In this document: piece after piece, positions 11,022-30,739 of the stretch
Layout of the letters: each line of letters opens with the position of its first letter
Numbering within the stretch: position 1 is the stretch's first letter
IMG/VR virus record: IMGVR_UViG_3300029554_000001
Direction: 5' to 3' (one strand)
Source: a virus
DNA: 64,000 bases
Notes under the pieces: model-generated
What the model was told of the DNA's origin: nothing
Seen by the model: the letters and a program-made list of their open reading frames with translations, nothing else
Database searches by the model: none
Program-made: the position numbers and the translations under genes

Positions 11022-11050
11022 TTGACAAGAATGAATTTGTATGTTACAAT
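11022..11050 (+). promoter_or_regulatory. consensus promoter TTGACA-17-TACAAT pointing against the leftward block (cassette A)
   Basis: TTGACA 11022-11027, TGT-TACAAT 11045-11050; followed by hairpin 11052-11093; the transcript would be antisense to mini-ORF A. Confidence 0.55.
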
Positions 11051-11111
11051 ACACATAGAGTTAAGAGACCAGTAACCTCTTAACCCTATGTGTTATGTTT
11101 TAATTTAATGT

Positions 11112-11192
11112 TTAGACTTCCATGAAGCCAGTCAAGACAATCACAGAATAATAAACATTAAATCTGTAGTTTATCTGTTTGATTTTCTACAT
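11112..11192 (-). CDS. mini-ORF A, 26 aa if TAG is read: M-Q(TAG)-KIKQINYRFNVYYSVIVLTGFMEV
   Basis: GGAGA SD 8 nt upstream of ATG-TAG; stop TAA; 65% identical to mini-ORF B2; absent from the ORF track because of TAG at codon 2. Confidence 0.6.
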
Positions 11193-11268
11193 GGTCTTTC
11201 ATCTCCTTTCTTCCTTAAGACAAGGGTTTCATTTATATGAACAGCTTACGGGGCTGGAGTTTTAGACA

Positions 11269-11290
11269 GGAACAGGATTATTCCTGTTCC
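11269..11290. terminator. hairpin GGAACAGGA-tta-TTCCTGTTCC with the gene's stop codon in its loop; T-run on the + strand
   Basis: Overlaps the TAA of 11278..11742; followed on the + strand by TTTTCTTTTT, so it could end the rightward antisense RNA and/or the leftward gene. Confidence 0.5.
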
Positions 11291-11742
11291 TTTTCTTTTT
11301 CTTTGTAAGGCTTAAGGGGAATACGATTACGAGTAGAATATTCGCCAGTATCGTTGTCCATGAGGAATTCGTTTTCACATTCGTCACAGAAGAATTTGGT
11401 TTCAGTTTTAAAATCATCAACTCCTGTTACTCCCCAATTTCCACAATAAGGACAACGAGGTTCACGATACTGACCAAAGTGAATATCTTTCTGATACTCT
11501 TCAGACCGAGGTTCACTCCAAACCTTGACAGAGAAGGTATTGCCAGACTTGTCATCAGGGTCAATCTCTGCCATACAGATATCCTGTTCAACATCCTGAC
11601 CATCACGGACAAAGACGATGTTTACACCATGATATCCTTCCTCTTGCTCGCAATAAATTCTAAATTGACCATTAGGAGTATCAACGAAAGCATGAGTGAA
11701 GCCATTAATCGTGCTCAAACCAATCTTGTTGTACTGTTTCAT
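11278..11742 (-). CDS. hypothetical protein with C-terminal zinc ribbon
   Basis: ORF track frame; ATG 11742 follows GAAGGAG; CPYCG...CDEC. Confidence 0.65.
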   Translation of the reverse strand: MKQYNKIGLSTINGFTHAFVDTPNGQFRIYCEQEEGYHGVNIVFVRDGQDVEQDICMAEIDPDDKSGNTFSVKVWSEPRSEEYQKDIHFGQYREPRCPYCGNWGVTGVDDFKTETKFFCDECENEFLMDNDTGEYSTRNRIPLKPYKEKEKEQE

Positions 11743-11827
11743 AATATAAATCTCCTTCAATTAAAAATAATTTTTTAAAAAACTCTTGACAATATGAGCA
11801 AGTAAGATTGTAGACCTACCTACTTTT

Positions 11828-12376
11828 TTACCAGCCGTAAACATTGCAAACTTGTTTACCAATAGCTCGGGTATACTTGGTAATATCTTTGGGAGTTGCT
11901 TTACCATGATACAATTTCCAACAGAAATTATCAAGCTGGTCAGAAGAGATTTCAGGTTTCACTTCCCTATATAAAGTGTAGTTTGTTCCGTCATGATGAG
12001 TTTGCATAGAGCGAAGATTGTTGTGAGAATCAACCCACCACTTACCATACTCACTACCCATTTTGAAGTTAAGACAGGCTTTAATATTATGCTCATCGAG
12101 AAGAGTATATCCCATTCTACGCCCATTCCAAAGACCAACATCAGCAATCTCGATGATACGACCTTCTGTGGAAATATCGAGGTTACATATTTCATCCTTA
12201 AAGTACATATCATTAAGGTCTAACATCTCTTCATGGAACTTATATTCTTCCCACTCAGAGTAATCAACTCCACATTCATCAAGTCTTTCCTTGATGTCAT
12301 CAATCCAATCATCGAGGTTCAGGTCGTAGTTGCTCCAAACGATACGAGAATTGCTTTTATTATTCTTGGTAGCCAT
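11828..12376 (-). CDS. hypothetical protein
   Basis: ORF track frame; start moved to ATG 12376 (MATKNN), which follows AAAGGAA and clears the upstream stop at 12438. Confidence 0.6.
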   Translation of the reverse strand: MATKNNKSNSRIVWSNYDLNLDDWIDDIKERLDECGVDYSEWEEYKFHEEMLDLNDMYFKDEICNLDISTEGRIIEIADVGLWNGRRMGYTLLDEHNIKACLNFKMGSEYGKWWVDSHNNLRSMQTHHDGTNYTLYREVKPEISSDQLDNFCWKLYHGKATPKDITKYTRAIGKQVCNVYGW

Positions 12377-12437
12377 AATCATAATTCCTTTCTTTTTTAT
12401 CATAATTAGAATGTTTTGATATAGAAAAAGCTGGAGA

Positions 12438-12989
12438 TTATATCCCAGCAAATCCTTTATAAGTTTCAACAATCTTGTTTTTTTCTTCAATGATGTCCTT
12501 AGTTGCTTTTTTTATACTGTAAATAAGATTGTCTCTCAATGTAGGATAGATTTGATATTCATCCCATTTAGCAAGCCAACCATCTTTATCTTCAAGCAAA
12601 GGTTCGGGACAGCATTCAGGAGAAGCATTAAGTGCAATAGAGTCAGTATAACTACCACTTCTCCAAGTGATATAATAACAACCACCCTGTTTGCTAATTG
12701 CGACACTTTCATCATTACCATAATCTCTGTAATAATGAGCATAAAGATTTGTTCTTGAAAAAAGATTGGCTTCTTCAGCGATTTTTACCAAAGAGAGAAT
12801 CTGATTAACAACTACAGTCCACTTAGCTCTACCGATTGCTTCTGTACGAGGAATGTAATATTCCTTAGTATTTTCATGAACAGTCTTAGCATCCTGATAA
12901 CGCTGAAGAAGTTCCATCATTTCGGTATCTTCGGTTTCTTCGCAAGAAATGGTGACGGTCATGCCCTTGTAAGTATTAGTGTTAGTCAT
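12438..12989 (-). CDS. hypothetical protein, tandem paralogue of 13056..13631
   Basis: ORF track; shares MTNT.TY..MTVT..C.E.EDTEMMEL and KDGWL.KWD.Y.IY with its neighbour. Confidence 0.7.
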   Translation of the reverse strand: MTNTNTYKGMTVTISCEETEDTEMMELLQRYQDAKTVHENTKEYYIPRTEAIGRAKWTVVVNQILSLVKIAEEANLFSRTNLYAHYYRDYGNDESVAISKQGGCYYITWRSGSYTDSIALNASPECCPEPLLEDKDGWLAKWDEYQIYPTLRDNLIYSIKKATKDIIEEKNKIVETYKGFAGI

Positions 12990-13055
12990 AGTTATGTTTC
13001 CTTTCTTTTTAAGTTGAAGTGTGAATAGGTGCTTAGTATATAAGAAAACTGGGGA

Positions 13056-13631
13056 TTATTCCCCAGTAATCTCAGAATAATTTTCTTGGATGGAACGAAT
13101 TCTATCCTCGTCAACTTTAATTCTGCGCTCAATTTCTTTCATAAGAGCAGAACGGAAAAGATTATAAATGTTATAATCATCCCATTTAACGAGCCAACCA
13201 TCTTTGTCCTCACCCCATTCAGAAGAATAATACTCTTCATCAGGATTTAAGAAACAGGTACTTGCGATACCCCCGTTTATTGAGCACTTAAGGAAGTAGC
13301 CTTTGTCTTTACCAACGGAGCTATAAGAAAGCCACATGCGGCAACGTTCACCAGTATCGTCCCTACAAAAAGAAATTCTCAAGAAATTATCAATCGTACC
13401 CCTCATATTGAAACTTGTAGCTGTCTCACACAACCCGAGAAGCTGATTGCAAATTTCAGTCCATTTAGCAGAACCAATAGCTTTAATACGAGGAAGGTAA
13501 AATTCCTCAGTGCGCGAGAGTGTAGCCTTAGTGTCATTCATCTTTTTAATGAGTTCCATCATTTCGGTGTCTTCATTCTCCTTGCAAGTAACAGTAACGG
13601 TCATGTTCTCATAAGTCTTAGTGTTAGTCAT
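13056..13631 (-). CDS. hypothetical protein, tandem paralogue of 12438..12989
   Basis: ORF track; see the paralogue. Confidence 0.7.
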   Translation of the reverse strand: MTNTKTYENMTVTVTCKENEDTEMMELIKKMNDTKATLSRTEEFYLPRIKAIGSAKWTEICNQLLGLCETATSFNMRGTIDNFLRISFCRDDTGERCRMWLSYSSVGKDKGYFLKCSINGGIASTCFLNPDEEYYSSEWGEDKDGWLVKWDDYNIYNLFRSALMKEIERRIKVDEDRIRSIQENYSEITGE

Positions 13632-13704
13632 AATACAACCCTTTCTCCCCGTATAGCCGTTAGGTCAGCTTAAATATTAGTTGCTTGTTGTTGCTTAAGG
13701 TTAA

Positions 13705-15321
13705 TTAGTCACGAGGAGTAACACGAACTTTGAGCTTGTTTTTCTTGGCATACTCACAAATAGCTTTGTACTCGTCCTCAGTGATACTACGGTTGGAAGC
13801 TCCTCTTGCCTGAACAATAGCTTCGTTTTCAATTTCAATAGTAACAAGAGACTTGTCAGTATCTTTAGTCTTACGAAGTAAAACAATCAGACAATTTCTC
13901 TTGATTATTCTGCTCAGGTAACTATACACACAATGATTCAACTCAGAACCTTCGCGTTTAACATCATCTGCATTCTTAGGACGAACAATACTGTATGTCT
14001 TATCCTCTGTAACAAAAGGCTTGAAATCTTTATAAGCCTTTTCAAACATCTCAGCCTGTTCCTCGGTAAGCTTGATTTCATAGTTGCGAGAAGTGATATC
14101 ATGAGTCTGCTTAAGGTAAGAGCTGTAAAGAGTAGGCTTGATATCCATGGAAACGCACATATCAAGATAATCACGAAGTTCGCCCATAAACGAGTTTAAA
14201 CTCTTAAAACCTTGGTTGACAGCCTCTTCACAAACATAATCCATAAACTTACCAAAAGTATAGAACTGATAGAATTTGGAATTTCTATAAGAAGTATAAT
14301 TCCTAAGATAAGCAGATAGAGTGCTAGTGAAAACATTTCCACCATACCCACCAATCTGGACATGGTTGAATTGAAATTCTTCGTCCCAATACTTAGCTTT
14401 TTCAATGATATCAAACCATTCCTGATTCGTGTAATGGCAGAAATCCTCTAAAGTTTGTCCACCGTTGTAACCATAATACTGAGTATCCTCGTCTTTCTTA
14501 AAAGCGGAACCAACAATAGACTGCAAATTCATCCAATCATCAAGAATGTTTCTGTCATTGGCTTCTTTATACTCTGCCTTGGTAAGATGAACAAGTTTGT
14601 AAACAGGTTCAGCAGTTTCAATCTTAAGACTAAGAAGAGCGTTTTGAATAGATTTGGGAGCAGTACGGAAGATGATTTCAGCAGATTTATTTCTACTTAA
14701 TGCGAATCTCAATTCTCTGAAAGTATAGTTAACGCCAATATTTTCAACGGGAATATCCCAAACTTGAGAGATAAAAGAAACTGCACTGTCACCCATTCCA
14801 GCTTCATAAACAGGAGCATTACCATCACTAACAGGTTTTGCATTAGGTTCAAGAATAGGAATTAACTGTTCACCATCCATGATAAAGTTGCAAGAGGAAT
14901 TGTTGGTGGCAATTCTATATCTGTAATGACGAGATACAATAGCACCAAGAGGGAAGCAATAGCCAACATTGACCCAGAAATCACCGCCTTTCAAATTAAT
15001 TTCTTTAATGATAAAAGTGTCGGGTAAAAGACAGTCACGATTGACAGGAGCACCAGTGAATAAATCAAAATACCACTGAAAATCAGAACGGTTCGAACTG
15101 TAATGAACAATGACTTTCTTTCCAAGAGGAGTAAAATCACTATTATAGCGATTGTTCTGAACCTTGGTCATTTCAACTCTTGCTTCTTCAAGCTCATCAG
15201 AGAGCTTTTTAATACGAGCGTTAATTTCTTTCTCTTTGGCAGAGATTTCATAGTTGTTGAAAAAGCTCTCATAATCATGAATGGAGGACTTGTAGAAGTT
15301 AGCAATAGCAGTGTTAGACAT
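13705..15321 (-). CDS. PcfJ-like domain protein
   Basis: C-terminal LNHCVYSYLSRIIKRNCLIVLLRK...VTIEIENEAIVQARGASN matches the PcfJ-type H-C-V..Y / TIE / Q.RG pattern; ATG 15321 follows AAAGGAAAA. Confidence 0.6.
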   Translation of the reverse strand: MSNTAIANFYKSSIHDYESFFNNYEISAKEKEINARIKKLSDELEEARVEMTKVQNNRYNSDFTPLGKKVIVHYSSNRSDFQWYFDLFTGAPVNRDCLLPDTFIIKEINLKGGDFWVNVGYCFPLGAIVSRHYRYRIATNNSSCNFIMDGEQLIPILEPNAKPVSDGNAPVYEAGMGDSAVSFISQVWDIPVENIGVNYTFRELRFALSRNKSAEIIFRTAPKSIQNALLSLKIETAEPVYKLVHLTKAEYKEANDRNILDDWMNLQSIVGSAFKKDEDTQYYGYNGGQTLEDFCHYTNQEWFDIIEKAKYWDEEFQFNHVQIGGYGGNVFTSTLSAYLRNYTSYRNSKFYQFYTFGKFMDYVCEEAVNQGFKSLNSFMGELRDYLDMCVSMDIKPTLYSSYLKQTHDITSRNYEIKLTEEQAEMFEKAYKDFKPFVTEDKTYSIVRPKNADDVKREGSELNHCVYSYLSRIIKRNCLIVLLRKTKDTDKSLVTIEIENEAIVQARGASNRSITEDEYKAICEYAKKNKLKVRVTPRD

Positions 15322-16335: not shown

Positions 16336-16354
16336 TGTTATATCTCCTTTCTTT

Positions 16355-17115: not shown

Positions 17116-17194
17116 GATATTTCCTTTCTGCCCGTAAACCCGATAGCACAGGATAATAAATTGGTTTATTGTGGATTGTTATGTGAGAAAACGA

Positions 17195-17497
17195 TTAGAT
17201 GTCAATTTCGATGATTTTACCATCCCAGTTATCGTGATTGTAAGTCTCAGCCCATGCAGATGTATCATTGAAGTTGTTTTCATCATCAAGAATATCATCA
17301 TCTACAAGAGACTCAATAGCTTCTTCCAGCTCGTCCATCGTAGAGATGTTGCAAAAGTTATAATTATCTACATCAATATGCCGACAAGCTTCGATAAACA
17401 GCTCAAATAAATGAATCTGAGCTTTCTCCATAGTGTCGAAGAACTCAGGTTCACCAATTTCACGCTCACAGCAATCAATAACCATAAACTTCTTCAT
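17195..17497 (-). CDS. hypothetical acidic protein, paralogue of 24918..25220
   Basis: ORF track; about 65% identity to 24918..25220 over the full 100 aa. Confidence 0.7.
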   Translation of the reverse strand: MKKFMVIDCCEREIGEPEFFDTMEKAQIHLFELFIEACRHIDVDNYNFCNISTMDELEEAIESLVDDDILDDENNFNDTSAWAETYNHDNWDGKIIEIDI

Positions 17498-17536
17498 AAT
17501 TTTTATTTCCTTTCTTCAATCAAATGTTGTTTGTTG

Positions 17537-18525: not shown

Positions 18526-19536
18526 TTAAGCGGCAATACGATTCCAAACAGAGTTCAGAATAGGCATGGTGTTAACTGCAACAGCCGTGAACGCTCCCGT
18601 AGTGGTAGACTTAGAAGATTTACGCATCTGAGTGGGATGACTCTCAAAGTCAGAAATTGCATTCAAAGCTTTCCAAGCTGTGTTATTGAAGTTCTGAAGG
18701 TCATCCTGATTGTAAGCTGTCATAAGCTTTTCAATCATAGCCAAATTACGAATCTGGATAATCTCAGAATCCTCAGTCTTAACAGGGAAGAGCTCACGAG
18801 CAAGAGCTTCGAATGCTTCCTTGGAATAAGGAGTGACCGCAAGCTTTTCAGCCTCAACCTTAAGACGCTCAAGATAGTTGGTATTCTGAAGCAGAATAGT
18901 TTTAGCCTGTTCCAACTTGGCCTGCATGGAATTGCTGTGACGAATACTTACACGGTTCTCTGCTCCCTTGGTTGCACGAGCGATACAGTTGGAACAGAAG
19001 ATACGGATGCTGATGAACATCGCCTGAATTGCCTTAGAACCATCATGGCTATTAAGGAACATCATGGTGGGCAAGAACTCATCATCCAGAATCTTCATGG
19101 GCTCGGTAGACATGGTGATGAAGCTCTTGGCTCCATTGGGCCCATAGCTACCAGCAGTTTCAAACTTAGCACCTCCCAAAGCAAGAGAGTCCAAGAAGTC
19201 AAAAGCCTCACGATTCTGAAGAATGTTGTAGTTCTTACCAACAATACCCAGAGGTGCATTGGTATCAGTACGAATGGTTGCAAACTGGTCAGGGATGATA
19301 AAAGGAGTATCAACCAGAATCTTCTGGTCATTCCATTCCTGTTCAACCTTGTTCACAAACTGGATAGGACGCTTTTCGACGGAGTAATCCAGACCACTGA
19401 GCTTGAGAGCAGACTCAAGAGAGGTTACGTTCTCAAGAGTGATACCCATATCTTCGTAGTACTTCTTACGAGGAGTGTTCTCAACGGCTTCCAGAACAGC
19501 ATTGACCTTTTTAGTGTCATAGTTAGCGATTCCCAT
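18526..19536 (-). CDS. DUF932-like (phage/plasmid-like protein family)
   Basis: LDYSVEKRP...ATIRTDTNAPLGIVGKNYNILQNREAFDFLDSL..GGAKFETAGSYG follows the DUF932/TIGR03299 pattern; ATG 19536 follows AAAGGAAA. Confidence 0.65.
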   Translation of the reverse strand: MGIANYDTKKVNAVLEAVENTPRKKYYEDMGITLENVTSLESALKLSGLDYSVEKRPIQFVNKVEQEWNDQKILVDTPFIIPDQFATIRTDTNAPLGIVGKNYNILQNREAFDFLDSLALGGAKFETAGSYGPNGAKSFITMSTEPMKILDDEFLPTMMFLNSHDGSKAIQAMFISIRIFCSNCIARATKGAENRVSIRHSNSMQAKLEQAKTILLQNTNYLERLKVEAEKLAVTPYSKEAFEALARELFPVKTEDSEIIQIRNLAMIEKLMTAYNQDDLQNFNNTAWKALNAISDFESHPTQMRKSSKSTTTGAFTAVAVNTMPILNSVWNRIAA

Positions 19537-19602
19537 AAAAATTTCCTTTCCGAGCATTAGCTCTAAACAAATGTATTGTGTTGTTTGATTTAAGATGAGA
19601 TT

Positions 19603-19851: not shown

Positions 19852-19880
19852 TTGACAAGATTGATGTTATGTGTTAATAT
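19852..19880 (+). promoter_or_regulatory. consensus promoter TTGACA-17-TAATAT pointing against the leftward block (cassette B)
   Basis: TTGACA 19852-19857, TGT-TAATAT 19875-19880, followed by the long hairpin 19881-19931. Confidence 0.55.
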
Positions 19881-19952
19881 ATGTATAGATGATAAGAAGA
19901 ATCCTATACTTCTTACTTACCATCTATACATCTTCGTAATTAATGTGTGAGA

Positions 19953-20024
19953 TTAATTACGGTTATAGATAATCATTATCTACATGAGATTGTAGAAATA
20001 ATTAACGTAGAAGATTCTCTACAT
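19953..20024 (-). CDS. mini-ORF B1, 23 aa: M-Q(TAG)-RIFYVNYFYNLM-Q(TAG)-IMIIYNRN
   Basis: GGAGGAAAGGAG upstream of ATG-TAG; C-terminus IYNRN shared with C and D. Confidence 0.55.
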
Positions 20025-20147
20025 GGCTTTCAACTCCTTTCCTCCTTAGACAAGGGACAATTATATAACAGTTTATAGGAACTGATTATATTAGAATAAG
20101 AGAATCGCCTATACAATTCTCTTAGTGAATTATTTTAGTTTAAACTA

Positions 20148-20228
20148 TTAAAGTTCGTATGCTCCGCCAAGAACAATAGAACAATAATAAACATTAAACT
20201 AATAGTTTATTTGTTTGACTGTCTACAT
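20148..20228 (-). CDS. mini-ORF B2, 26 aa: M-Q(TAG)-TVKQINY-Q(TAG)-FNVYYCSIVLGGAYEL
   Basis: AAGGAGA SD then ATG-TAG; paralogue of mini-ORF A. Confidence 0.6.
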
Positions 20229-20292
20229 AGACATTCTCCTTTCCATTTAGCACTAATATATAAACAGTTTATAGGAACTGATTATATCAAGA

Positions 20293-20318
20293 AAGAGCAG
20301 GATTTTATTCCTGCTCTT
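20293..20318. terminator. hairpin AAGAGCAGG-attttatt-CCTGCTCTT with the gene's stop codon in its loop
   Basis: Overlaps the TAA of 20305..20484; T-run on the + strand; same design as 11269-11290. Confidence 0.5.
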
Positions 20319-20484
20319 TTTCTATTGTGTACAAATACTGCTTTCGCTTTTCTTTGTACTGCTTATTGATTTTGTACCGATAATTGCCATGAGTCTTACG
20401 CTGGATTCCTTCACAGCGGTCATAGTACATACCATCGTACTGGGGATACTCTGTGATAGCATTGTTAGGTGTACGTTTAGACAT
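20305..20484 (-). CDS. hypothetical basic 59-aa protein
   Basis: ORF track frame; ATG 20484 is 8 nt after GGAGGG and overlaps the end of 20477..22816. Confidence 0.55.
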   Translation of the reverse strand: MSKRTPNNAITEYPQYDGMYYDRCEGIQRKTHGNYRYKINKQYKEKRKQYLYTIEKEQE

Positions 20485-22816
20485 AACTTTTGCCCTCCAA
20501 ACCATATTCTTTAGCATCAAGTTTACTGCTACTTGCACTATAACCTTGACCTTTGTTGAGTACAATGTTTACAGGACATTTAATTCCCTTCTCATGAATC
20601 CAGTTAATTACAAACTTAACTGCATCAGGTTCGTTTCCAAGCCAACGATTGTAAAGTCCATGAATTTGAATGACTTCATTGTGGGTGTTGACTTCAATCG
20701 TAAAGAAAGGAATATCAATATTTTCATTCTTTCTTAAAAATAGAATGTTTGTTCTACCTTCTGCAACACGACTAATATAACCACCAACACAATGATGAAG
20801 ATATACACCTTCTTTCGTAATTTTGTTCATCTCTTCAGGAACAACGATAGAGAAATTATCATCAGCATACTCAAACTTTTCTTTGCGTTGGTCATAAAGT
20901 TTAGCTGCTAACTTATTTAACCTCTCTTGTTCTTCTTTGTTTCTTGCTTCTTTGTCTGTAATGTTGATTTCAATCAGCATATTGTGATAACGATGAAGCT
21001 CATTCACATCTTTACAGGCGTACAAATCAATATTTGGTCTGTTAGTGTTTGAAATTTGCTTAAACAGGTTGAGAGCATCAGAAAAGATTCTGAACACGTC
21101 TTCTTGCTGACCTTTCTTATCGGTTTTTTCCTGAAGACGCATAAGCTTGAGAAGATTCTTTTTATTCTTTTCATTTTGTTCAGGAGTTAATGACTGGATA
21201 TCTCTTTCTTTGTTTATATACAAGCTTTCTTTCCAAGAATTTCTTCTACGAGAATCAAAAGTGTACACACTGTTATTTACTCCAACAAAATACAAAAACT
21301 CACGATAGTTAGAATGAACATTATTCATTCTTTTTGCCATGGTAAAGTAAAAGTCGGAATCTTTGTCAGTAATAGAAGAAAGATTTTTAACGCCAGCAAC
21401 AAATTGAACGATTTCAATTACACATCGAGGAGTATAGGTCGCGCCTGTGTAAATATAAGTTGGACTGTTAGGGCTCTTTTTCTTTTCCTCAAACATCTTA
21501 TCCACCAATTCAAGCTGGTGCTTGTTCATGCCACTAAGCTCATAAATGTTTGCAGATTTAGAATATTTTCTAAATCCAAAAAGATGTTCAATATCAGATT
21601 TTGCAGATGCACTCATGAGATAATTGGCGATGTATTTATATCTAGCTTTGTAAAATTGTTCGATGGCAGGACATCTAAGAGTGTAAATAATCCTGAGAAT
21701 TAAGGAATTTGTTTTAGTCATAATGTCACTATCATTGATGATAGAAGAGATATAAAACAATCTCTTAAACTTAAACATGTCCTCAAAACCTTTGAAGAAA
21801 CAGACATTATCAGAAGGAATTCCAATATCTGAAGAACTGGACACTCTAAATACAACATTTTTACTAAGAGTTGAAGCGGGATTGAAGATTGTTACTTTTC
21901 CCTTGTTGTCAATGAGAATTCGTGTCTGTTCTTCGAACTTGAAATAACCACCAAACTGACGAATGACACAGTAATTTTCATTTAAAATATTAAATGTCCA
22001 AATTGTATCTTTGTATTCAGTGTGGTACTCATTATTCCAAGAGTTTTTAACATCAATGGCCTTCTTAGGATATAACTGACGAAGTTCGTCTAAATTAACA
22101 GTTGGTAAACTATTAACAATTTCAGAAATATCCGCTGATGATTTGGAGACGGTACGAGGATACGCCATTTTATAATAATCAGCGAATGTATAAGGAGTCC
22201 ATTGTGTCCATCTGATTCTCGGATTGCTTTCCTTTTCGGTAAATTCCTCAATTGCTTGAGAAAAATGGAAATGGTAAACAGCCTTATACAAATCATGTTG
22301 AAGGAAATGAACAAATCCTAAACTATAGAATTTACCTCCTTTAGATTTAAATGCGATGTCTCCATTAACATCAAATGGAGCAGGGCAATTCTTGAAAAGG
22401 AAATAACGCTCCATAAAATAGTAGTTTCTTTTCTCTTCAGGAATCTTTCTAATGTTGATTGTCATTATGCCAAATACAAGCATTTCAAATTCAGGGTAAT
22501 ATTTGGCATAAGCAACTTTTGCATTTTTACCAGAACCAACCACAATTGTGTGGGATTGAATATTACTCACATTGAAATGACCAGTTACTCCTTTACGATA
22601 CTGTCCAATAGTATCATTATGCTGAATAATTTCATACTCTCCTCTCAGCAAGTGGAAAGCTTTACCATTTGCTTTCTGTTGCCAATATACAGTGATATCA
22701 GGGCAACTATTAAGATTGGGATTAGCTCCTTCTTTAGTTGAGAGGAACTTTTTTACAGTGGCTTTGTTCTTTTCAATGATTTCGTTGGGAATGTTGTCAA
22801 TGTAAGTGGTGTTCAT
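20477..22816 (-). CDS. large PcfJ-like domain protein (779 aa)
   Basis: C-terminal LHHCVGGYISRVAEGRTNILFLRK...FFTIEVNTHNEVIQIHG parallels 13705..15321; AAAGGAAA SD. Confidence 0.65.
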   Translation of the reverse strand: MNTTYIDNIPNEIIEKNKATVKKFLSTKEGANPNLNSCPDITVYWQQKANGKAFHLLRGEYEIIQHNDTIGQYRKGVTGHFNVSNIQSHTIVVGSGKNAKVAYAKYYPEFEMLVFGIMTINIRKIPEEKRNYYFMERYFLFKNCPAPFDVNGDIAFKSKGGKFYSLGFVHFLQHDLYKAVYHFHFSQAIEEFTEKESNPRIRWTQWTPYTFADYYKMAYPRTVSKSSADISEIVNSLPTVNLDELRQLYPKKAIDVKNSWNNEYHTEYKDTIWTFNILNENYCVIRQFGGYFKFEEQTRILIDNKGKVTIFNPASTLSKNVVFRVSSSSDIGIPSDNVCFFKGFEDMFKFKRLFYISSIINDSDIMTKTNSLILRIIYTLRCPAIEQFYKARYKYIANYLMSASAKSDIEHLFGFRKYSKSANIYELSGMNKHQLELVDKMFEEKKKSPNSPTYIYTGATYTPRCVIEIVQFVAGVKNLSSITDKDSDFYFTMAKRMNNVHSNYREFLYFVGVNNSVYTFDSRRRNSWKESLYINKERDIQSLTPEQNEKNKKNLLKLMRLQEKTDKKGQQEDVFRIFSDALNLFKQISNTNRPNIDLYACKDVNELHRYHNMLIEINITDKEARNKEEQERLNKLAAKLYDQRKEKFEYADDNFSIVVPEEMNKITKEGVYLHHCVGGYISRVAEGRTNILFLRKNENIDIPFFTIEVNTHNEVIQIHGLYNRWLGNEPDAVKFVINWIHEKGIKCPVNIVLNKGQGYSASSSKLDAKEYGLEGKSYV

Positions 22817-24882: not shown

Positions 24883-24917
24883 AGTATTATTTCCTTTCTT
24901 AATTCAGATGTTTAAAA

Positions 24918-25220
24918 TTAGATTTCGATTTCAAAGATTTTGCCATCCCAGTTATCATGGTTAGTAGTTTCAGCCCATGCACAAGTACCCTCGAAGTTGT
25001 TCTCGTCATCGAAAATGTCATTATCAATGAGAGAATCAATAGCTTTTTCAAGCTCTTCTTTTGTAGTGACAACATACTTATTATAATCATCTGCATCAAG
25101 ATGCCGACAAGCCTCAAGAAACAAATTGAACAAGTGAATCTGAGCTTTCTCCATGGTATCAAAGAAATAAGGATGACCAATCTCACGTTCGCAAGTATCA
25201 GTGACCATAAACTTCTTCAT
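24918..25220 (-). CDS. hypothetical acidic protein, paralogue of 17195..17497
   Basis: ORF track; see the paralogue. Confidence 0.7.
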   Translation of the reverse strand: MKKFMVTDTCEREIGHPYFFDTMEKAQIHLFNLFLEACRHLDADDYNKYVVTTKEELEKAIDSLIDNDIFDDENNFEGTCAWAETTNHDNWDGKIFEIEI

Positions 25221-25311
25221 AATTTTCTTTCCTTTCTTAAATCACAAATGTTGTTTAGTTCTCATCAATGCAAAAGCAACTTGTATCAGAATCAACTTTA
25301 TTATTGGTTAT

Positions 25312-25340
25312 ATTATACTTTCCTTTCTTAATGGTGTCAA
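25312..25340 (-). promoter_or_regulatory. leftward promoter TTGACA-17-TATAAT
   Basis: Minus strand TTGACA (25340-25335), 17 bp, TATAAT (25317-25312); back-to-back with the rightward promoter at 25369. Confidence 0.65.
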
Positions 25341-25368: not shown

Positions 25369-25397
25369 TTGACAAGTGTTGTGATTTGTGTTATATT
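25369..25397 (+). promoter_or_regulatory. consensus promoter TTGACA-17-TATATT pointing against the leftward block (cassette C)
   Basis: TTGACA 25369-25374, TGT-TATATT 25392-25397, followed by hairpin 25398-25441. Confidence 0.55.
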
Positions 25398-25466
25398 ACA
25401 CTCATCAAGCAAGGTATGTAACTTTTACTTGATGAGTGTAGGTTTTACAATACCTGTAACTGTGGA

Positions 25467-25538
25467 TTAGTTACGATGGTACACGATACGAACGACCGAG
25501 ATTTGTCTATCCATATCAACATGTAAAATTTTCTACAT
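25467..25538 (-). CDS. mini-ORF C, 23 aa: M-Q(TAG)-KILHVDMDRQISVVRIVYHRN
   Basis: AAGGAGA SD then ATG-TAG; stop TAA. Confidence 0.5.
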
Positions 25539-25637
25539 ATTAATTTCTCCTTTCGTGAGTAATTATGTAAACAGGCTTTACAGGAGTCTGGTGTCTTAAG
25601 TAAGACTGGTAGTTAGTAGCTACCAGTCTTTTCTCTT

Positions 25638-26570
25638 TTACTTCTTATAAACCATAAAGGTGAGAAGATAATCACGAATCTTTTCAGCGGGATGTCCTTC
25701 ATGCTCTTCAATCTTGTCCTGAGCAACACGAACAAACTCATCACAGCTCTTATACTGCTTAAGGTTCAGCAGAAAATAGTTGAATGCTTTGGTATCCTCA
25801 CAGTGCTTGTAGCAAGCAGAAATTCCTGCCAACATGCGCTGAGTATAAACCATATCATCCTTCCAACCAGTCCCCTGAAGAACAGCGAACACAAAACGAA
25901 GAGCGTTTTCACCATCGCGTTTAACAATACGATACAGCTCTTCAATTGCATTGATATTGTTATAGCGGTTAATGGTGCTATTGCGATTGGTCTTAACAGT
26001 CAGACCAAATTCCTTTGTGACCTGATTGATAATTACTGCTGTAGGCTTCTTGGCACAAAGTTCAGCTTTATATCTTTCATAGCCACGAAGATTGGTCTTA
26101 CCCTCGTTCTGAGTAGCAAACAAATCTGCTTCTTCTTCCAGAGTAAGATTGATAAATACTTTGCAAGTGATAGCATAGATGGGGAAGCCTTTACTCTGCA
26201 TATAAAGCAGAGCACTCAAGGTATGAGCCCCATCCATAAGAAACAGATGCCAAGTATTACCAACTTTACGAATAGAAGCCGCTTTAATTTCAACCTTGTT
26301 GATATTAAAGTTGTTGGTAATTTTAGCTACTTCATAGTTTTTGGGTTCGCGCTGATAGTGCAAGTCAATTTCAGGCATAAAAAGAGGAATGTCTCTAATA
26401 GCCCAGTTACGACCATCTTCTCTCTTTTCAATCTCCCTTTCCACAGAGAGCTTAAAGGCATAAACGGTCTTGGACTGTTCATTGGTGATTGCTTTGGGCT
26501 TAAGTGCATCGAACAGGACTTCACTGACGGACTTTTCGTTCTTGATGTTGGTGAGATTAATCTTCTTCAT
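25638..26570 (-). CDS. ParB/sulfiredoxin-like nuclease-domain protein (tentative)
   Basis: HYQREP followed by LFLMDGAHTLSAL resembles the ParB N-terminal DGxHR-type core; AAAGGAA SD. Confidence 0.5.
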   Translation of the reverse strand: MKKINLTNIKNEKSVSEVLFDALKPKAITNEQSKTVYAFKLSVEREIEKREDGRNWAIRDIPLFMPEIDLHYQREPKNYEVAKITNNFNINKVEIKAASIRKVGNTWHLFLMDGAHTLSALLYMQSKGFPIYAITCKVFINLTLEEEADLFATQNEGKTNLRGYERYKAELCAKKPTAVIINQVTKEFGLTVKTNRNSTINRYNNINAIEELYRIVKRDGENALRFVFAVLQGTGWKDDMVYTQRMLAGISACYKHCEDTKAFNYFLLNLKQYKSCDEFVRVAQDKIEEHEGHPAEKIRDYLLTFMVYKK

Positions 26571-26613
26571 GATTCTAAATTCCTTTCAAGTTAAAAAAGT
26601 TTGTAGTTATCAC

Positions 26614-26642
26614 TTGACAGATATTATCAAGTGTGCTAAGAT
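26614..26642 (+). promoter_or_regulatory. consensus promoter TTGACA-17-TAAGAT pointing against the leftward block (cassette D)
   Basis: TTGACA 26614-26619, TAAGAT 26637-26642, followed by hairpin 26646-26677. Confidence 0.5.
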
Positions 26643-26693
26643 AAACACAAGTAGAAAGCCTACACTCTCTACTTGTGATGCAATTAATACGGA

Positions 26694-26765
26694 TTAATTA
26701 CGATTGTAAATGATGAAGACTATTATTATAGACCAATAATAGTCAACTGCTAAGATTTTCTACAT
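26694..26765 (-). CDS. mini-ORF D, 23 aa: M-Q(TAG)-KILAVDYYWSIIIVFIIYNRN
   Basis: AAAGGAG SD then ATG-TAG; hydrophobic core; stop TAA. Confidence 0.6.
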
Positions 26766-26892
26766 AGCAAAACTCCTTTCTAATTTAATAATACATTAAT
26801 TCATTGTAGGCTAAATTAATGTGCGAGTGAATAAGTTGGGCTTAAACACTCTATTGAGGGATGGAAGTTATTTTCCATCCCTCTAACAATGT

Positions 26893-27087
26893 TTAAACTC
26901 TTTCAACCTTATAAGGCTTGCAAGCAACAACATCGAAATTGTTTACAAGCCAGTCAGGTTTGGTTTCTTTAGTATTAAGGAATTTACAAACAATGTTTGC
27001 AAGCACTTCACTGTTAAATACAGTTTTTTCCTTCATACTCATTGTAACTGTTACGGATTTTCCGTATTTGTTTGTAATCTTAAACAT
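26893..27087 (-). CDS. hypothetical 64-aa protein
   Basis: ORF track frame; ATG 27087 follows GGAGGTG and overlaps the upstream stop. Confidence 0.55.
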   Translation of the reverse strand: MFKITNKYGKSVTVTMSMKEKTVFNSEVLANIVCKFLNTKETKPDWLVNNFDVVACKPYKVERV

Positions 27088-27394: not shown

Positions 27395-27457
27395 TTTACT
27401 TTGACTCCTTTCAAGTCTGTATTAAATTTAATTTTAAATTTGTCTTAAGCTATATGG

Positions 27458-27790
27458 TTAGAAACAAATACGTTTCTTTTTGATTTTGGTAAGCATCCAA
27501 CACCAAGGATTTCCAAAATCATCTTCAAGAGGAGTAACCTTAATGGTTACAAGCACCTCAGTACTAAGATGCTCAAGGATATAATCCAAATTCTTAAGAG
27601 AGAAAACATATCTTTCTTTTGTATCATCTTTAGTGCTTTTTGCGCACCATTTAATGATTTCTTTCAAGCCCGAATCAATCAGGCAGTTCAGGTTCCCATA
27701 AGTGTCAAGCGTTTTATTAAGAGAAGGTGCTTCTAAATGGGTAGGATTGTTGGTGAGAGAGCGAACGGTGTTTTTTAATTTCTTGGACAT
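27458..27790 (-). CDS. hypothetical protein
   Basis: ORF track; AAAGGAAA SD. Confidence 0.65.
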   Translation of the reverse strand: MSKKLKNTVRSLTNNPTHLEAPSLNKTLDTYGNLNCLIDSGLKEIIKWCAKSTKDDTKERYVFSLKNLDYILEHLSTEVLVTIKVTPLEDDFGNPWCWMLTKIKKKRICF

Positions 27791-27826
27791 TTTCTTTATT
27801 TCCTTTCTTTTGTTGATTATTGATAT

Positions 27827-28018
27827 TTACACTTGCTTAAGATACTTAAGGTTTAATTCTAATTTGGAATCCATTGTTAAGCCATTTTCGCGCTTGATTC
27901 TGCCACACAAGTTATTCAAAGCTTGTTTCTCAGAAGAAGCCGTGGTATAACCAGAAAAATGGCAATAATAGTTATACCATCTGGTTACGGGACCATCGTA
28001 GTAATATTTGAGTTTCAT
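27827..28018 (-). CDS. hypothetical 63-aa protein
   Basis: ORF track frame; ATG 28018 follows AAAGGAGGTG. Confidence 0.6.
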   Translation of the reverse strand: MKLKYYYDGPVTRWYNYYCHFSGYTTASSEKQALNNLCGRIKRENGLTMDSKLELNLKYLKQV

Positions 28019-28037
28019 ATATACACCTCCTTTCAAC

Positions 28038-28283
28038 TCAAATAAAATTGAAAACTTTACACTCTTCATGGACATAGCCTCCAAGAACTTCAGGACAGGA
28101 CTGGAAATAACCAGATGCATCCTGAATGTGGATGAGAATGGTATCGTCCATATTTAATGAACCTTTGCGCACTTTTGCTCTAAGCGAGCGACGAATTCGT
28201 TCCCAAATGTTGCACTTTTCTTCGAATACATCATAGATGACTTTGCCATCCTTTTTGACATATCCACTATACCATCTTGTCAT
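28038..28283 (-). CDS. hypothetical 81-aa protein
   Basis: ORF track frame; start moved to ATG 28283 (MTRWYSG); the upstream part of the track ORF overlaps the cassette E promoter and hairpin. Confidence 0.55.
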   Translation of the reverse strand: MTRWYSGYVKKDGKVIYDVFEEKCNIWERIRRSLRAKVRKGSLNMDDTILIHIQDASGYFQSCPEVLGGYVHEECKVFNFI

Positions 28284-28289
28284 AACTAC

Positions 28290-28318
28290 TTGACACCCTC
28301 CTTTTGTTGTGTTATAAT
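28290..28318 (+). promoter_or_regulatory. consensus promoter TTGACA-17-TATAAT pointing against the leftward block (cassette E)
   Basis: TTGACA 28290-28295, TGT-TATAAT 28313-28318, followed by hairpin 28323-28360. Confidence 0.55.
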
Positions 28319-28366
28319 ACCTAATAAGAAAAGTGGTTGACCAATCCACTCTTCTTATTAAATTGA

Positions 28367-28522
28367 TTAGTCTAAGTCTAACTTAGATATATCTATCTGG
28401 AAGAATTCAATCAGCTATTCAACACTTAGGTGTTGCATGTACCAATTAAATTCAAACTCAGAAGTGATATACTACTTCAGAATAGAACCAATCTTTGCTT
28501 TATTACTAAGACTATCCTACAT
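28367..28522 (-). CDS. mini-ORF E, 51 aa with four TAG codons: M-Q(TAG)-DSLSNKAKIGSILK-Q-YITSEFEFNWYMQHLSVE-Q-LIEFFQIDISKLDLD
   Basis: AAAGGAGG SD then ATG-TAG; hydrophilic and unlike the other nine; open only if TAG is read. Confidence 0.4.
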
Positions 28523-28663
28523 GAATTCCTCCTTTCTTTTAACTCGTTAGTGTTGTGACTAACTTGTTATTCGTTATCTTATTGGTCAGATAAGATAGAG
28601 TCTTAGCTGCAACTAAGCACTCTATGAAGGGTAGGAGCATATGTTCCTACCCTTTAACAATGC

Positions 28664-29005
28664 TTAGATGTTATCCCACTGATTAGTGATGAAATTAAAG
28701 CATCGAACAGTTCCACCAATCTTTTTCTCCCAGCGGGGGTTGTTTTTGTTCAATGTATAAGTGGCAAGGCGACTTTTAGCAGCCGTGACAATAATATCAT
28801 ACTGACCGAGTTCCTGAAGAGACTTGATATAGTTCATGAGTTTGACATCATTTTCAAATTCGATGTCAATTGTTCTGGAAGCACTGACAATATCAGTGCA
28901 ATGGTCATCCACACCTTCAGGTTTCCACCCCTGTTCAAAGTGGCTGATAATAGAATCAATATCATAGATGCAGATGCGTTTAACAAACTTAACAGTGTAA
29001 TTCAT
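28664..29005 (-). CDS. hypothetical protein
   Basis: ORF track; AAAGGAAAA SD. Confidence 0.65.
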   Translation of the reverse strand: MNYTVKFVKRICIYDIDSIISHFEQGWKPEGVDDHCTDIVSASRTIDIEFENDVKLMNYIKSLQELGQYDIIVTAAKSRLATYTLNKNNPRWEKKIGGTVRCFNFITNQWDNI

Positions 29006-29034
29006 TTCTTTTTTCCTTTCTGTTTATAAAAGTC

Positions 29035-29063
29035 TTGACAAGCACAATTTCATGTGTTATACT
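29035..29063 (+). promoter_or_regulatory. consensus promoter TTGACA-17-TATACT pointing against the leftward block (cassette F)
   Basis: TTGACA 29035-29040, TGT-TATACT 29058-29063, followed by hairpin 29073-29104; possible end at hairpin GGAGAGAT/ATCTCTCC plus T-rich tail near 29257-29290. Confidence 0.55.
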
Positions 29064-29122
29064 TGTTATTAGAATAAGAGAAGTGCCTACACACCTCTCT
29101 TATTAATAAGCTTTTATTCTTC

Positions 29123-29197
29123 TTAGAAATTATAGTTCTTTAGAATTACAACTACAACGACGTTTAAAGAATAATTGACTGAAATAATCTTCTTCAT
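29123..29197 (-). CDS. mini-ORF F, 24 aa, the only copy without TAG: MKKIISVNYSLNVVVVVILKNYNF
   Basis: AAGGAGG SD; codon 2 is AAG; differs from G2 and H mostly at third codon positions. Confidence 0.65.
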   Translation of the reverse strand: MKKIISVNYSLNVVVVVILKNYNF

Positions 29198-29326
29198 TGT
29201 TTTACCTCCTTAAGAAGATAAAAGCAAACAAGGATGTAGGTCCTTATTCACTACAGAGGAGAGATGTGGGGATATCTCTCCTTCTGTTATATTTGAGTAG
29301 TTTAACGACTTGCTCAGGTCGAGAGG

Positions 29327-29734
29327 TTAGTTCTGATAATCGTCAGAAACTAATACCCATTCTTCCCCATTACTATCAATAAGATGAATGGTTGTTCTAT
29401 CCTCACTGATAGTTACATTCTGAAGATTAGAGAACCAATCCTCAGTTGTTGTGTAGCTATCCTCAACTCCTTTGTTATAACCAGCGTTATATGCACCAGT
29501 TACGTCTTCGTTAGTGAAGACTTCTGCTGGTGCACTTTTACTGTAATCAATATGGTCAAGAATAACAGCGATTCCAATCGCAAGGACAACTACCAGAATA
29601 AACATAGCTCTGGGATTCATGCTCTTATTTTGAGCTATTGCTTCAAGATTAATAACAAGACCGTACACAATCATGATAGCAACAATAGCAATAGCAACAA
29701 TGGTAACATTGGTAATATTGATAAACATCTTCAT
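29327..29734 (-). CDS. membrane protein (two TM helices)
   Basis: ORF track; the SD spacing fits the second ATG (29728) better; NITNVTIVAIAIVAIMIVYGLVI and MFILVVVLAIGIAVIL. Confidence 0.65.
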   Translation of the reverse strand: MKMFINITNVTIVAIAIVAIMIVYGLVINLEAIAQNKSMNPRAMFILVVVLAIGIAVILDHIDYSKSAPAEVFTNEDVTGAYNAGYNKGVEDSYTTTEDWFSNLQNVTISEDRTTIHLIDSNGEEWVLVSDDYQN

Positions 29735-29762
29735 TTCCTTTCTGGTTTTTTACGTCTTTTCC

Positions 29763-29791
29763 TTGACAAACAATTATTTATGTGTTATTAT
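29763..29791 (+). promoter_or_regulatory. consensus promoter TTGACA-17-TATTAT pointing against the leftward block (cassette G)
   Basis: TTGACA 29763-29768, TGT-TATTAT 29786-29791, followed by hairpin 29802-29819. Confidence 0.55.
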
Positions 29792-29837
29792 AATGATGAG
29801 AAGGTTGCCTACACAACCTCCTTAATGCATAATTATC

Positions 29838-29912
29838 TTAGAAGTTGTGATTCTTCAAGATAATCATACTAACTATGCCGAGAACATAGTCAATAAATGT
29901 TATTTTCTACAT
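29838..29912 (-). CDS. mini-ORF G1, 24 aa: M-Q(TAG)-KITFIDYVLGIVSMIILKNHNF
   Basis: AAGGTGA SD then ATG-TAG; stop TAA. Confidence 0.6.
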
Positions 29913-30056
29913 TTTATCACCTTTTCATAATTTAATACTTAATTATAAATTATGTAGGTAATCTATAATTAAGCAGACTGCTTATTGCGACTAAGCACTC
30001 TATAAGATAGAGGAAGATACTCTTATCTTCCTCTACCCTAACAATGCTTATTATGC

Positions 30057-30131
30057 TCAGAAGTTATAATTCTTCAGTATGGCAACTGTTACAACATTAA
30101 GAGCATAATTTACGGAAATCGTTTTCTACAT
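30057..30131 (-). CDS. mini-ORF G2, 24 aa: M-Q(TAG)-KTISVNYALNVVTVAILKNYNF
   Basis: AAAGGAGG SD then ATG-TAG; stop TGA. Confidence 0.6.
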
Positions 30132-30219
30132 GATGATTTCCTCCTTTCCGAGTGCGATTTGGATTACTAAGCACTCTATTAAGCCCACCATCAATTACGA
30201 TGATGGGCTTTAACAATGC

Positions 30220-30390
30220 TCAGATAGGGATACAAATAACATATCCATCATCCAAGAATCGGGGATAAAGCTTATTCTTATTGAGAAGCTTATCTCCAAT
30301 CTCTTTTGCTTCCTCCTCATTAGAGGCAGACACGAATACTGTATCACAACCACTAATGATGGAAGTGATATATTTGACTTTGTATGTCAT
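30220..30390 (-). CDS. hypothetical 56-aa protein (below the ORF-track cutoff)
   Basis: ATG 30390 follows AAAGGAATAAAAG; MTYKVKYITSIISGCDTVFVSASNEEEAKEIGDKLL...; stop TGA. Confidence 0.55.
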   Translation of the reverse strand: MTYKVKYITSIISGCDTVFVSASNEEEAKEIGDKLLNKNKLYPRFLDDGYVICIPI

Positions 30391-30417
30391 TTTCTTTTAT
30401 TCCTTTCTATAAAAGTC

Positions 30418-30446
30418 TTGACAAATACAACTTTATATGTTATACT
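30418..30446 (+). promoter_or_regulatory. consensus promoter TTGACA-17-TATACT pointing against the leftward block (cassette H)
   Basis: TTGACA 30418-30423, TGT-TATACT 30441-30446, hairpin 30457-30486; candidate end at GGGACACTT/GAAGTGTCCC plus TTTTGCTTTGTTT (30650-30686). Confidence 0.6.
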
Positions 30447-30509
30447 TGTTGTTGTAGTAAGAAAGATGCCTATACACCTTTCTTACAAAAAGAGTGATTA
30501 TTAACCTTA

Positions 30510-30584
30510 TCAGAAGTTATAATTCTTTAGGACGAGAATCGTAACAACATTTAAAGTATAATCTATTGTAATTATCTTCTACAT
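30510..30584 (-). CDS. mini-ORF H, 24 aa: M-Q(TAG)-KIITIDYTLNVVTILVLKNYNF
   Basis: AGGAGG SD then ATG-TAG; stop TGA. Confidence 0.6.
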
Positions 30585-30739
30585 TTATTACCTCCTGAAG
30601 ATTGATAGAAGTACTTATCAATATAGGTTAATAAGCACTACAAAACATTGGGACACTTGTTCGGAAGTGTCCCTTTTGCTTTGTTTGGAGAAAGGCTATT
30701 TGTTTATACTCGTTAACCTTCCAGAACGAGTTGGATGAG

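Follow-up and report, generated by a model that had tools for sequence, protein, structure and literature searches.

Rightward promoters facing amber-started mini-genes in the leftward early block of a recoded phage: candidate antisense-repressed, code-switch-gated modules

The 64,000-nt stretch of viral DNA held as IMGVR_UViG_3300029554_000001 (the window; its numbering is used throughout) contains a leftward block of early genes, spanning 4.3-36.7 kb, within which eight near-consensus host-type promoters point rightward against the genes. An earlier note on this DNA had drawn attention to these promoters and proposed that each drives a cis-antisense RNA across a small hydrophobic peptide gene, as in type I toxin-antitoxin modules; the proposal was followed up here entirely in silico. 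Each gap between early genes that faces one of the promoters contains a minus-strand mini-ORF (open reading frame) with a strong Shine-Dalgarno site, and all eight promoters sit just 3' of such a mini-ORF cassette. The GC skew is negative across the block. Compared with related phages, all long minus-strand ORFs tested change most at codon position 3, and plus-strand ORFs overlapping them display the mirror-image codon-position pattern of an antisense shadow. The coding signature on one strand and its shadow on the other indicate that the eight promoters oppose a purely leftward coding block. Plus-strand ORFs within the cassettes are also antisense shadows by the codon-position test, even when TAG is treated as a sense codon.

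The antisense promoters P1 to P8 lie on the plus strand at 11022-11050 (P1; TTGACA, a 17-bp spacer with TG, and TACAAT), 19852-19880 (P2), 25369-25397 (P3, back-to-back with a leftward consensus promoter at 25312-25340), 26614-26642 (P4), 28290-28318 (P5, a perfect TTGACA/TG/TATAAT), 29035-29063 (P6), 29763-29791 (P7) and 30418-30446 (P8). All eight were recovered where the earlier note had placed them, as exact matches to TTGACA-N14-TGnTAnnnT. Most of the promoters that it had cited for comparison were recovered as well (rightward at 1070, 2816 and 36815; leftward at 36443, 19631 and 25340); the one at 43472 is of the same type but has TATATA as its -10 box and so falls outside the strict pattern. 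A loose consensus scan returned 68 promoter-like sites versus 68.4 in shuffled sequence, a result that would be compatible with chance promoter-like matches of no function in AT-rich intergenic DNA. The strict pattern, however, occurs 12 times on the two strands of the window versus 0.07 times expected (100 shuffles), and without the TG requirement there are 15 matches versus 1.34 expected. The orthologous substitution rates are 0.016 in the -35 hexamer, 0.016 in the TG and 0.022 in the -10 hexamer, compared with 0.166 in the 14 spacer bases, 0.134 in the 20 nt upstream of the -35 box and 0.205 at third codon positions of neighboring genes. This contrast, in which the hexamers are about ten times more conserved than the spacer, is the footprint of a plus-strand promoter under purifying selection. 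The promoters are also kept beside the mini-ORFs, an association that holds across 140 distinct family ORFs drawn from many metagenomes. Chance is refuted by these three observations, as the earlier note had anticipated, and hardly any credence can be given to it. With the peptide as the sole criterion for finding family ORFs, 43 of 56 had an opposing TTGACA-17-TAnnnT at most 175 nt past the stop codon. In the relatives from IMG/VR, almost all family ORFs have an antisense promoter beside them; those without a promoter of their own are mostly members of tandem cassettes, with a few at locus edges.

The expectation of eight cassettes with one mini-ORF each had to be revised, since ten mini-ORFs were counted and two of the promoters each cover a tandem pair. 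Nine of the ten belong to one family of 23-26 codons. In order along the window, and all on the minus strand, these are M-TAG-KIKQINYRFNVYYSVIVLTGFMEV (11112-11192, with AGGAG 10 nt upstream), M-TAG-RIFYVNYFYNLM-TAG-IMIIYNRN (19953-20024), M-TAG-TVKQINY-TAG-FNVYYCSIVLGGAYEL (20148-20228, a tandem copy that lacks a separate promoter), M-TAG-KILHVDMDRQISVVRIVYHRN (25467-25538, not hydrophobic), M-TAG-KILAVDYYWSIIIVFIIYNRN (26694-26765), MKKIISVNYSLNVVVVVILKNYNF (29123-29197, the only copy in the window without any TAG), M-TAG-KITFIDYVLGIVSMIILKNHNF (29838-29912), M-TAG-KTISVNYALNVVTVAILKNYNF (30057-30131, a tandem copy with neither its own promoter nor an H1/H2 loop pair, described below) and M-TAG-KIITIDYTLNVVTILVLKNYNF (30510-30584). 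The tenth (28367-28522, minus strand), which faces P5, is an unrelated ORF of 51 codons set in a cassette of the same architecture; its codon 2 is TAG, and it contains two additional TAGs in frame. The Shine-Dalgarno GGAG is invariant in orthologous alignments, differences among the mini-ORFs by codon position rank 3 > 1 > 2 (4/2/20 changes at the three positions of the 51-codon ORF), and both frame and length of 23-26 codons are kept across the 140 distinct family ORFs. By these substitution patterns, the mini-ORFs are translated coding sequences.

The earlier description of the products as small hydrophobic peptides stands as regards small coding ORFs and only partly as regards hydrophobicity. 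The best 15-aa Kyte-Doolittle window scores 1.8-2.2 in five of the ten peptides and 0.55-1.2 in the other five, and the product of the 51-codon ORF is hydrophilic. The peptides evolve rapidly (rates of 0.155 and 0.082 at codon positions 1 and 2, versus 0.051 and 0.039 in neighboring genes), with K3, [DN]-Y at positions 8-9 and a C-terminal N-x-N conserved family-wide. Unlike the variable ORF, the flanking untranslated RNA is nearly invariant between relatives. No Rfam family matches the window at gathering scores and none of relevance appears at E<=1 within 10.8-30.8 kb; Pfam and PHROGs gave nothing significant for six of the peptides at E<=10.

Relatives of the window were recovered by degenerate pattern searches as IMG/VR contigs of 108-220 kb, and the metagenome set comprises 103 loci, many of them from human-gut assemblies. 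The mini-ORF family is common in human-gut metagenomes. A close described relative was not found: megablast of 4 kb of the region and tblastn of the C-terminal half of the terminase gave no match against 50,697 phage records, and the sole match of a 779-aa protein by tblastn was a distant one to a PcfJ domain. The exact 53-mer of one cassette was not found in IMG/VR. Among 185,579 species genomes scanned, family members occur on one contig, which is 28 kb long, was binned as Bacteroidaceae and is taken to be phage DNA; the remaining ten contigs matched, at one site each, were dismissed as chance matches. No lysogeny signal was seen within the window, and the lineage is one of large and apparently virulent phages.

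The mini-ORFs have to be viewed against the genetic code of the phage. Reading TAG as a sense codon raises the coding density of the right arm from 0.637 to 0.883 and leaves that of the left arm hardly changed. Pfam domains of the endolysin (CHAP, PG_binding_1) and two GIY-YIG endonucleases align across in-frame TAGs, and 34 of the 39 TAG differences from close relatives correspond to CAA or CAG. Because of the density gain, the domains crossing TAGs and the interchange with CAA and CAG, TAG is assigned on sequence grounds to glutamine in the late genes, where it makes up 27% of glutamine codons; the early genes contain no TAG in 7,406 codons. The recoded arm corresponds to the rightward, late portion of the window (36800-64000). 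Its endolysin gene (44795-45568, plus strand; CHAP plus PG_binding_1) contains four in-frame TAG codons, which fits the idea of recoding-gated lysis genes, and this endolysin suggests a Gram-positive host. One early gene (32559-33173, minus strand) ends in TAG, and the 210 nt that follow have no coding signature; read-through of this codon was therefore ruled out, the extension being non-coding and the TAG a genuine stop.

Nine of the ten mini-ORFs open with ATG-TAG. Under the host code these would be start-stop pairs, and only the recoding of the phage makes sense of them. In 46 distinct ORFs from close relatives, codon 2 is TAG 36 times, AAG eight times and AAA twice. In a set of 57 metagenome ORFs chosen independently of codon 2, it is TAG in 35, AAG in 13, AGT in six and CGN in three, and never CAA or CAG. 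The internal glutamine codons of the mini-ORFs, on the other hand, comprise 44 TAG, 10 CAA and five CAG, and TAG and CAA/CAG interchange freely within the peptides (e.g., KIKQINY versus KIK-TAG-INY). Such free interchange at internal positions, together with the exclusive use of TAG among glutamine codons at codon 2, argues that dependence on amber decoding is itself selected there. Most members that have lost the codon-2 TAG retain an internal one, and the unrelated 51-codon ORF likewise has TAG at codon 2. Two further Shine-Dalgarno plus ATG-TAG starts are present in the window (498, plus strand; 5307, minus strand), outside the peptide family and with no antisense promoter.

Each mini-ORF is typically flanked by two hairpins. 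The 5' hairpin of the mini-ORF mRNA (H1) lies on the minus strand at 11242-11256 in the first cassette and at 20069-20084, 20258-20287, 25572-25590, 26793-26822, 28574-28597, 29223-29252, 29937-29974 and 30610-30639 in the others. The 3' hairpin (H2) lies at 11051-11093 (minus strand) and at 19880-19932, 20097-20124, 25397-25440, 26646-26677, 28321-28361, 29073-29104, 29798-29823 and 30457-30486. In the first cassette, the H1 loop CCCGUAA is complementary to the H2 loop UUACUGG. In general, the two loops are about 190 nt apart and complementary, and they co-vary between cassette groups in at least five sequence classes: CCUACA/UGUAGG, CCUAUA/UAUAGG, CCUGUAA/UUACAGG, a CCCGUAA/UUACGGG type (with one mismatch in the window copy and perfect in relatives) and UGACCAAU/AUUGGUCA. 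The H1 and H2 stems are unrelated, so the cassette is not one long inverted repeat.

The covariation was quantified on an alignment of linker-joined H1 and H2 windows from 45 distinct cassettes, the windows having been chosen with motif lists. Pairing extends to 81.2% of cells, as opposed to 59.8% after shuffling (none of 500 shuffles attained the real value) and 37-47% with slid partners. In the loop-loop helix, pairing rises to 89%, and two positions show UA/CG at 20/19 and AU/GC at 34/6. In a motif-free scan, 76 of 109 cassettes and none of 327 controls had loops complementary over 6 nt or more, and additional loop classes were revealed (TCCGTG, CTCGAAC). The longest complementary run between whole untranslated regions was discarded as a measure, being too noisy in AT-rich sequence, and loop-restricted tests were used instead. 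With window length fixed at 40 nt, every one of the 40 distinct H2 hairpins is more stable as minus-strand RNA (-17.5 versus -12.1 kcal/mol), and H1 has no strand bias; the bias indicates that H2 is primarily a structure of the mini-ORF mRNA. This qualifies the idea that each antisense RNA opens with the lower hairpin of its cassette, the outer pairs of which moreover overlap the -10 box in five cassettes. Since cis-antisense partners are complementary everywhere by construction, a selected match between H1 and H2 points to an intramolecular 5'-3' kissing contact within the mRNA. Compared with shuffled sequence, both RNAs are much more stably folded (z = -5.1 and -5.9), and the hairpins flanking the mRNA, with H2 stronger on the mRNA strand, are an indirect hint that this mRNA is stable.

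The same structures would also be compatible with the mini-ORF acting as a cis-acting sensor of the code switch, that is, a leader peptide on which ribosomes would start and stop at once while TAG is a stop, and which they would traverse once TAG is decoded, remodeling H1 and H2 and thereby altering the stability or translation of the flanking genes, the peptide itself being irrelevant. The specific placement of TAG at codon 2, the far greater conservation of the untranslated regions and hairpins than of the peptide, the presence of an unrelated ORF on the same platform and the several family peptides that are not hydrophobic all agree with such a role. The stop codon, however, lies 14-24 nt before H2, a distance at which a ribosome that stops there would fall short of the hairpin, and attenuation by a ribosome competing with H2 was ruled out on this spacing. 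Furthermore, K3, [DN]-Y and N-x-N are conserved, codon position 2 changes least, and some members lack TAG altogether, which together make a pure sensor distinctly unlikely.

From each promoter, the predicted antisense RNA overlaps the mini-ORF, its start codon and its Shine-Dalgarno site completely. The P2 RNA would span the tandem mini-ORFs at 20024 and 20228, and the P7 RNA that at 29912, as well as that at 30131 if an intervening E hairpin (see below) is read through. Intrinsic terminators consisting of a hairpin and a T-run were located on the plus strand at 11268-11300 (overlapping the stop codon of the gene at 11278-11760), 20290-20330, 29256-29292 and 30650-30686, in agreement with the ends that had been noticed near 11269, 20293, 29257 and 30650, and a fifth was added at 25602-25640. 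The promoter-to-terminator distances predict RNAs of about 220-440 nt, close to the 200-450 nt previously estimated. Five of the eight units have such a plus-strand terminator at the cassette edge, on the upstream gene's stop codon, in a block without plus-strand genes. Terminators in this position confine the RNA to the cassette, which makes it look like a dedicated cis-antisense RNA and not a means of general damping.

Downstream of P4, P5 and P7 (26614, 28290 and 29763) there is no canonical terminator; what follows is a conserved, bipartite hairpin that lacks a clean T-run. This E element lies at 26842-26895 (no strand assigned), where the flanks TAARCACTCTAY ... TAACAATGYTTA enclose a variable, covarying inner stem, with further copies at 28613-28666, 29991-30050 and 30167-30222. 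Four cassettes have an E element in place of a T-run terminator. Among the 48 distinct versions in the loci, the flanks are invariant and the outer stem holds the upstream gene's stop codon; the element may be a weak terminator, an RNase III site or something different.

The arrangement could alternatively be transcriptional punctuation, in which strong convergent promoters and hairpins act mainly as insulators or roadblocks, timing or damping read-through of the leftward operon into the following gene, and the mini-ORFs are passengers. The downstream genes start 25-40 nt beyond the -35 box with no recognizable promoter of their own and must therefore rely on read-through across the cassette; about 32 kb is served by only three consensus leftward promoters, and an operon transcribed as one polycistronic mRNA would likewise be severed where the antisense RNA pairs with it. 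Against this, five of the plus-strand RNAs are terminated at the cassette edge, the mini-ORFs are coding with an invariant Shine-Dalgarno site and a selected codon-2 TAG, and simple collision of polymerases gives the loop-loop covariation no role. Punctuation as the main function is consequently considered unlikely, less so than the sensor.

Comparison with six related loci places synteny breakpoints at cassette edges (20091/20257, 28305/28322, 28666/29001, 30003 and 30226/30384), so the repeats also serve as recombination joints. Close relatives (loci L021-L027) differ in whether they have the genes at 28664-29005 and 30220-30390 and the tandem cassette at 20092-20256, and the cassettes are 70-80% identical to one another. 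It could be argued from these data that the cassettes are simply homologous recombination joints that shuffle orphan early genes, as do the PeSL units of T4-type phages. This accounts for the repetition but would leave unexplained why the promoters face as they do, why the mini-ORF is coding, and what the TAG lock and the loop covariation are for. As a full account it is improbable, more so than either the sensor or punctuation; recombination fits better as a by-product alongside a regulatory function.

Taken together, the balance of the evidence tips modestly towards the cassettes being antisense-repressed, code-switch-gated mini-protein modules, each a compact convergent two-RNA unit. In such a unit, the minus strand between two early genes carries, in order, H1, the strong Shine-Dalgarno site, ATG-TAG with about 22 further codons, and H2, beyond which the near-consensus sigma-A-type promoter with its extended -10 box would fire back over the whole mini-gene. 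Early in infection, when the host RNA polymerase is active, the antisense RNA would pair with the mini-gene mRNA and block its ribosome-binding site, and the duplex would probably be a substrate for RNase III. The codon-2 amber would act as a start-stop pair until TAG-to-glutamine decoding by the phage is switched on, and the complementary H1 and H2 loops would close the mRNA in a 5'-3' kissing lock, a stable and inert form comparable to the fold-back of hok or aapA1. Through the combination of antisense RNA, amber codon and kissing lock, the mini-proteins would be made only late, when TAG is decoded and transcription from host promoters has faded. That the plus-strand RNAs are made and repress the mini-genes, and that events follow this order, is what we infer from the layout, and a toxic or lysis-related activity of the peptides is likewise a presumption. 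The type I toxin-antitoxin analogy holds for the layout (promoter, full antisense overlap and small ORF) and does not extend to similarity with any known type I family.

Several observations weigh against this interpretation. A clean terminator was not found in three units. The loop-loop complementarity is present on both strands, the mRNA strand being argued only by the G-U bias of H2, and most H2 hairpins have no U-tract. Searches for tRNA genes, suppressors included, came up empty for the 64-kb window and for about 60 related loci, which are parts of genomes of about 155-220 kb, and the decoding switch is something we infer solely from codon usage. TAG is entirely absent from two ortholog groups (MKKIIS... 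and MKTIIE...). Strong hydrophobicity is missing in half of the peptides, and the peptide evolves fast; the act of translation could matter instead of the product. Finally, the group at 20024/20228 has a convincing minus-strand extended -10 box (TGATATAAT) just before H1, and a separate minus-strand promoter was not consistently identifiable for the other mini-ORF groups; the mini-ORFs may thus be just part of polycistronic early mRNAs.

A bolder version of the antisense-repressed, code-switch-gated module is possible but doubtful. Under this "triple-locked" timer, early-made mRNAs would be silenced by the amber codon, by an antisense RNA persisting no longer than host sigma-A transcription does, and by the kissing lock, and their release late in infection or upon collapse of host transcription would yield membrane-active or host-killing peptides that set the timing of lysis or serve as a dead-man switch. 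If true, this would be the first type I toxin-antitoxin logic wired to a genetic-code switch, and the cassettes would be natural reporters of that switch.

Other features of the window were recorded alongside the cassettes. UACAU is the cleavage motif of MazF/EndoA from Bacillus and Staphylococcus. This motif (the complement of AUGUA) occurs at the anti-start of every antisense RNA (e.g., 30579-30584) and in several H1 loops (29223-29252, 29937-29974), quite possibly by coincidence. The annotated early genes of the minus strand are those at 18526-19557, 20477-22816 and 25638-26570 (DUF932, PcfJ-like and DUF6551/ParB-like, respectively), the rest being orphans; the DUF932, PcfJ and DUF6551/ParB families are typical of conjugative elements and large Bacillota phages. 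Two segments of about 320 bp (17194-17512 and 24917-25235) are 78-80% identical and contain paralogous 100-aa genes (17195-17497 and 24918-25220, minus strand) located 7.7 kb apart. Just to the right of the divergent consensus promoters at 36415-36443 (minus strand) and 36815-36843 (plus strand), the ORF at 38000-39742 (plus strand, possibly starting from 37727) matches Pfam PF05183 (RdRP), the eukaryotic-type two-barrel polymerase family that includes YonO of SPbeta; it is probably the phage's own late-gene RNA polymerase. Across the ORFs at 47472-48107, 48408-49055, 49755-50570 and 50577-51614 (plus strand), the large terminase is apparently split into two parts, and between them lie two GIY-YIG/NUMOD homing-endonuclease genes, each carrying five in-frame TAGs.

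The moment at which recoded gut phages switch the meaning of TAG, and the consequences of the switch, have so far been judged by which genes carry in-frame stops. The cassettes described here are small, self-contained units whose amber codon comes as early as it can, combined with a predicted antisense RNA and a putative structural lock, and are therefore potential reporters of the code switch. Additionally, they extend cis-antisense control resembling that of type I systems to a ten-copy family in a large, apparently virulent phage lineage common in the gut, and bring to light a covarying long-range contact between loops for which Rfam has no entry. If the peptides are membrane-active, they would represent a new class of phage-encoded effectors.

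Amongst known systems, the Ibs/Sib repeats of E. coli appear to be the closest match for layout and copy number. As reportedly described by Fozo et al. in 2008, they occur as several paralogs per genome with ORFs of 18-19 codons. The cassettes resemble them in having multiple paralogs, a very short ORF (23-26 codons versus 18-19), a fully complementary cis-antisense RNA of similar size and expected paralog-specific recognition elements. There is no sequence similarity between the two, however, and the Ibs/Sib repeats are chromosomal, whereas the cassettes lie in the early region of a virulent-looking phage and have a codon-2 amber, complementary 5' and 3' mRNA loops and peptides of which about half are not strongly hydrophobic. 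A survey for Ibs/Sib type I repeats is available (PMC2887945). In hok/sok and AapA1/IsoA1, the toxin mRNA is kept inert by a long-range 5'-3' contact, and the antisense RNA kisses apical loops and yields a substrate for RNase III (PMC5416894). A structured, locked mRNA, recognition through loops and loop sequences that give paralog specificity are shared with the cassettes. The predicted contact here differs in joining the loops of two terminal hairpins instead of forming a linear fold-back helix, and the antisense RNA spans the whole ORF, not just the 5' untranslated region; there is also no homology, and activation by 3' trimming is not evident in the cassettes. Type I systems of Bacillota prophages, such as bsrG/SR4 and yonT/SR6 of SPbeta (PMC5848175) and those of C. 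difficile phiCD630-1 (PMC7699646), likewise combine phage-encoded small ORFs with convergent, sigma-A-driven antisense RNAs. Those RNAs overlap mainly at their 3' ends, are present in one or two copies and serve prophage maintenance with proven toxins of 38-58 aa, in contrast to the ten mini-ORFs, complete overlap and lack of a lysogeny signal in the window. Searches of Rfam, Pfam and PHROGs found no similarity to the known type I families (Fst/Ldr, Ibs, TxpA, BsrG, SprA and the antitoxin RNAs of Rfam).

Comparison with other phages highlights the two remaining aspects of the cassettes. The PeSL units of T4-type phages are repeated early units of a host-type promoter and a stem-loop in a variable early region (PMC2839356, PMC4122927), and resemble the cassettes both as repeated intergenic promoter/hairpin units and in the gene gain and loss junctions that coincide with them. 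PeSL promoters, however, are co-oriented with the genes and accompany no ORF; all eight promoters in the window are antisense to the minus-strand block, and they face a coding mini-gene flanked by covarying loops. In recoded gut phages, TAG encodes glutamine, early genes are compatible with the standard code, and late genes, including the endolysin, contain in-frame TAGs, which are thought to prevent premature expression (bioRxiv 10.1101/2021.08.26.457843; PMC10607447; PMC9523058). The phage studied here shares the assignment of TAG to glutamine, the TAG-free early genes and the in-frame TAGs of late genes including the endolysin. It differs in placing the putative gate at codon 2 of mini-genes inside the early block and in adding an antisense RNA and a structural lock, and no report of a codon-2 amber combined with a dedicated antisense RNA was found in the literature. 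What is new in the proposed modules is thus the addition of a genetic-code lock and a kissing-loop lock to small genes under cis-antisense control.

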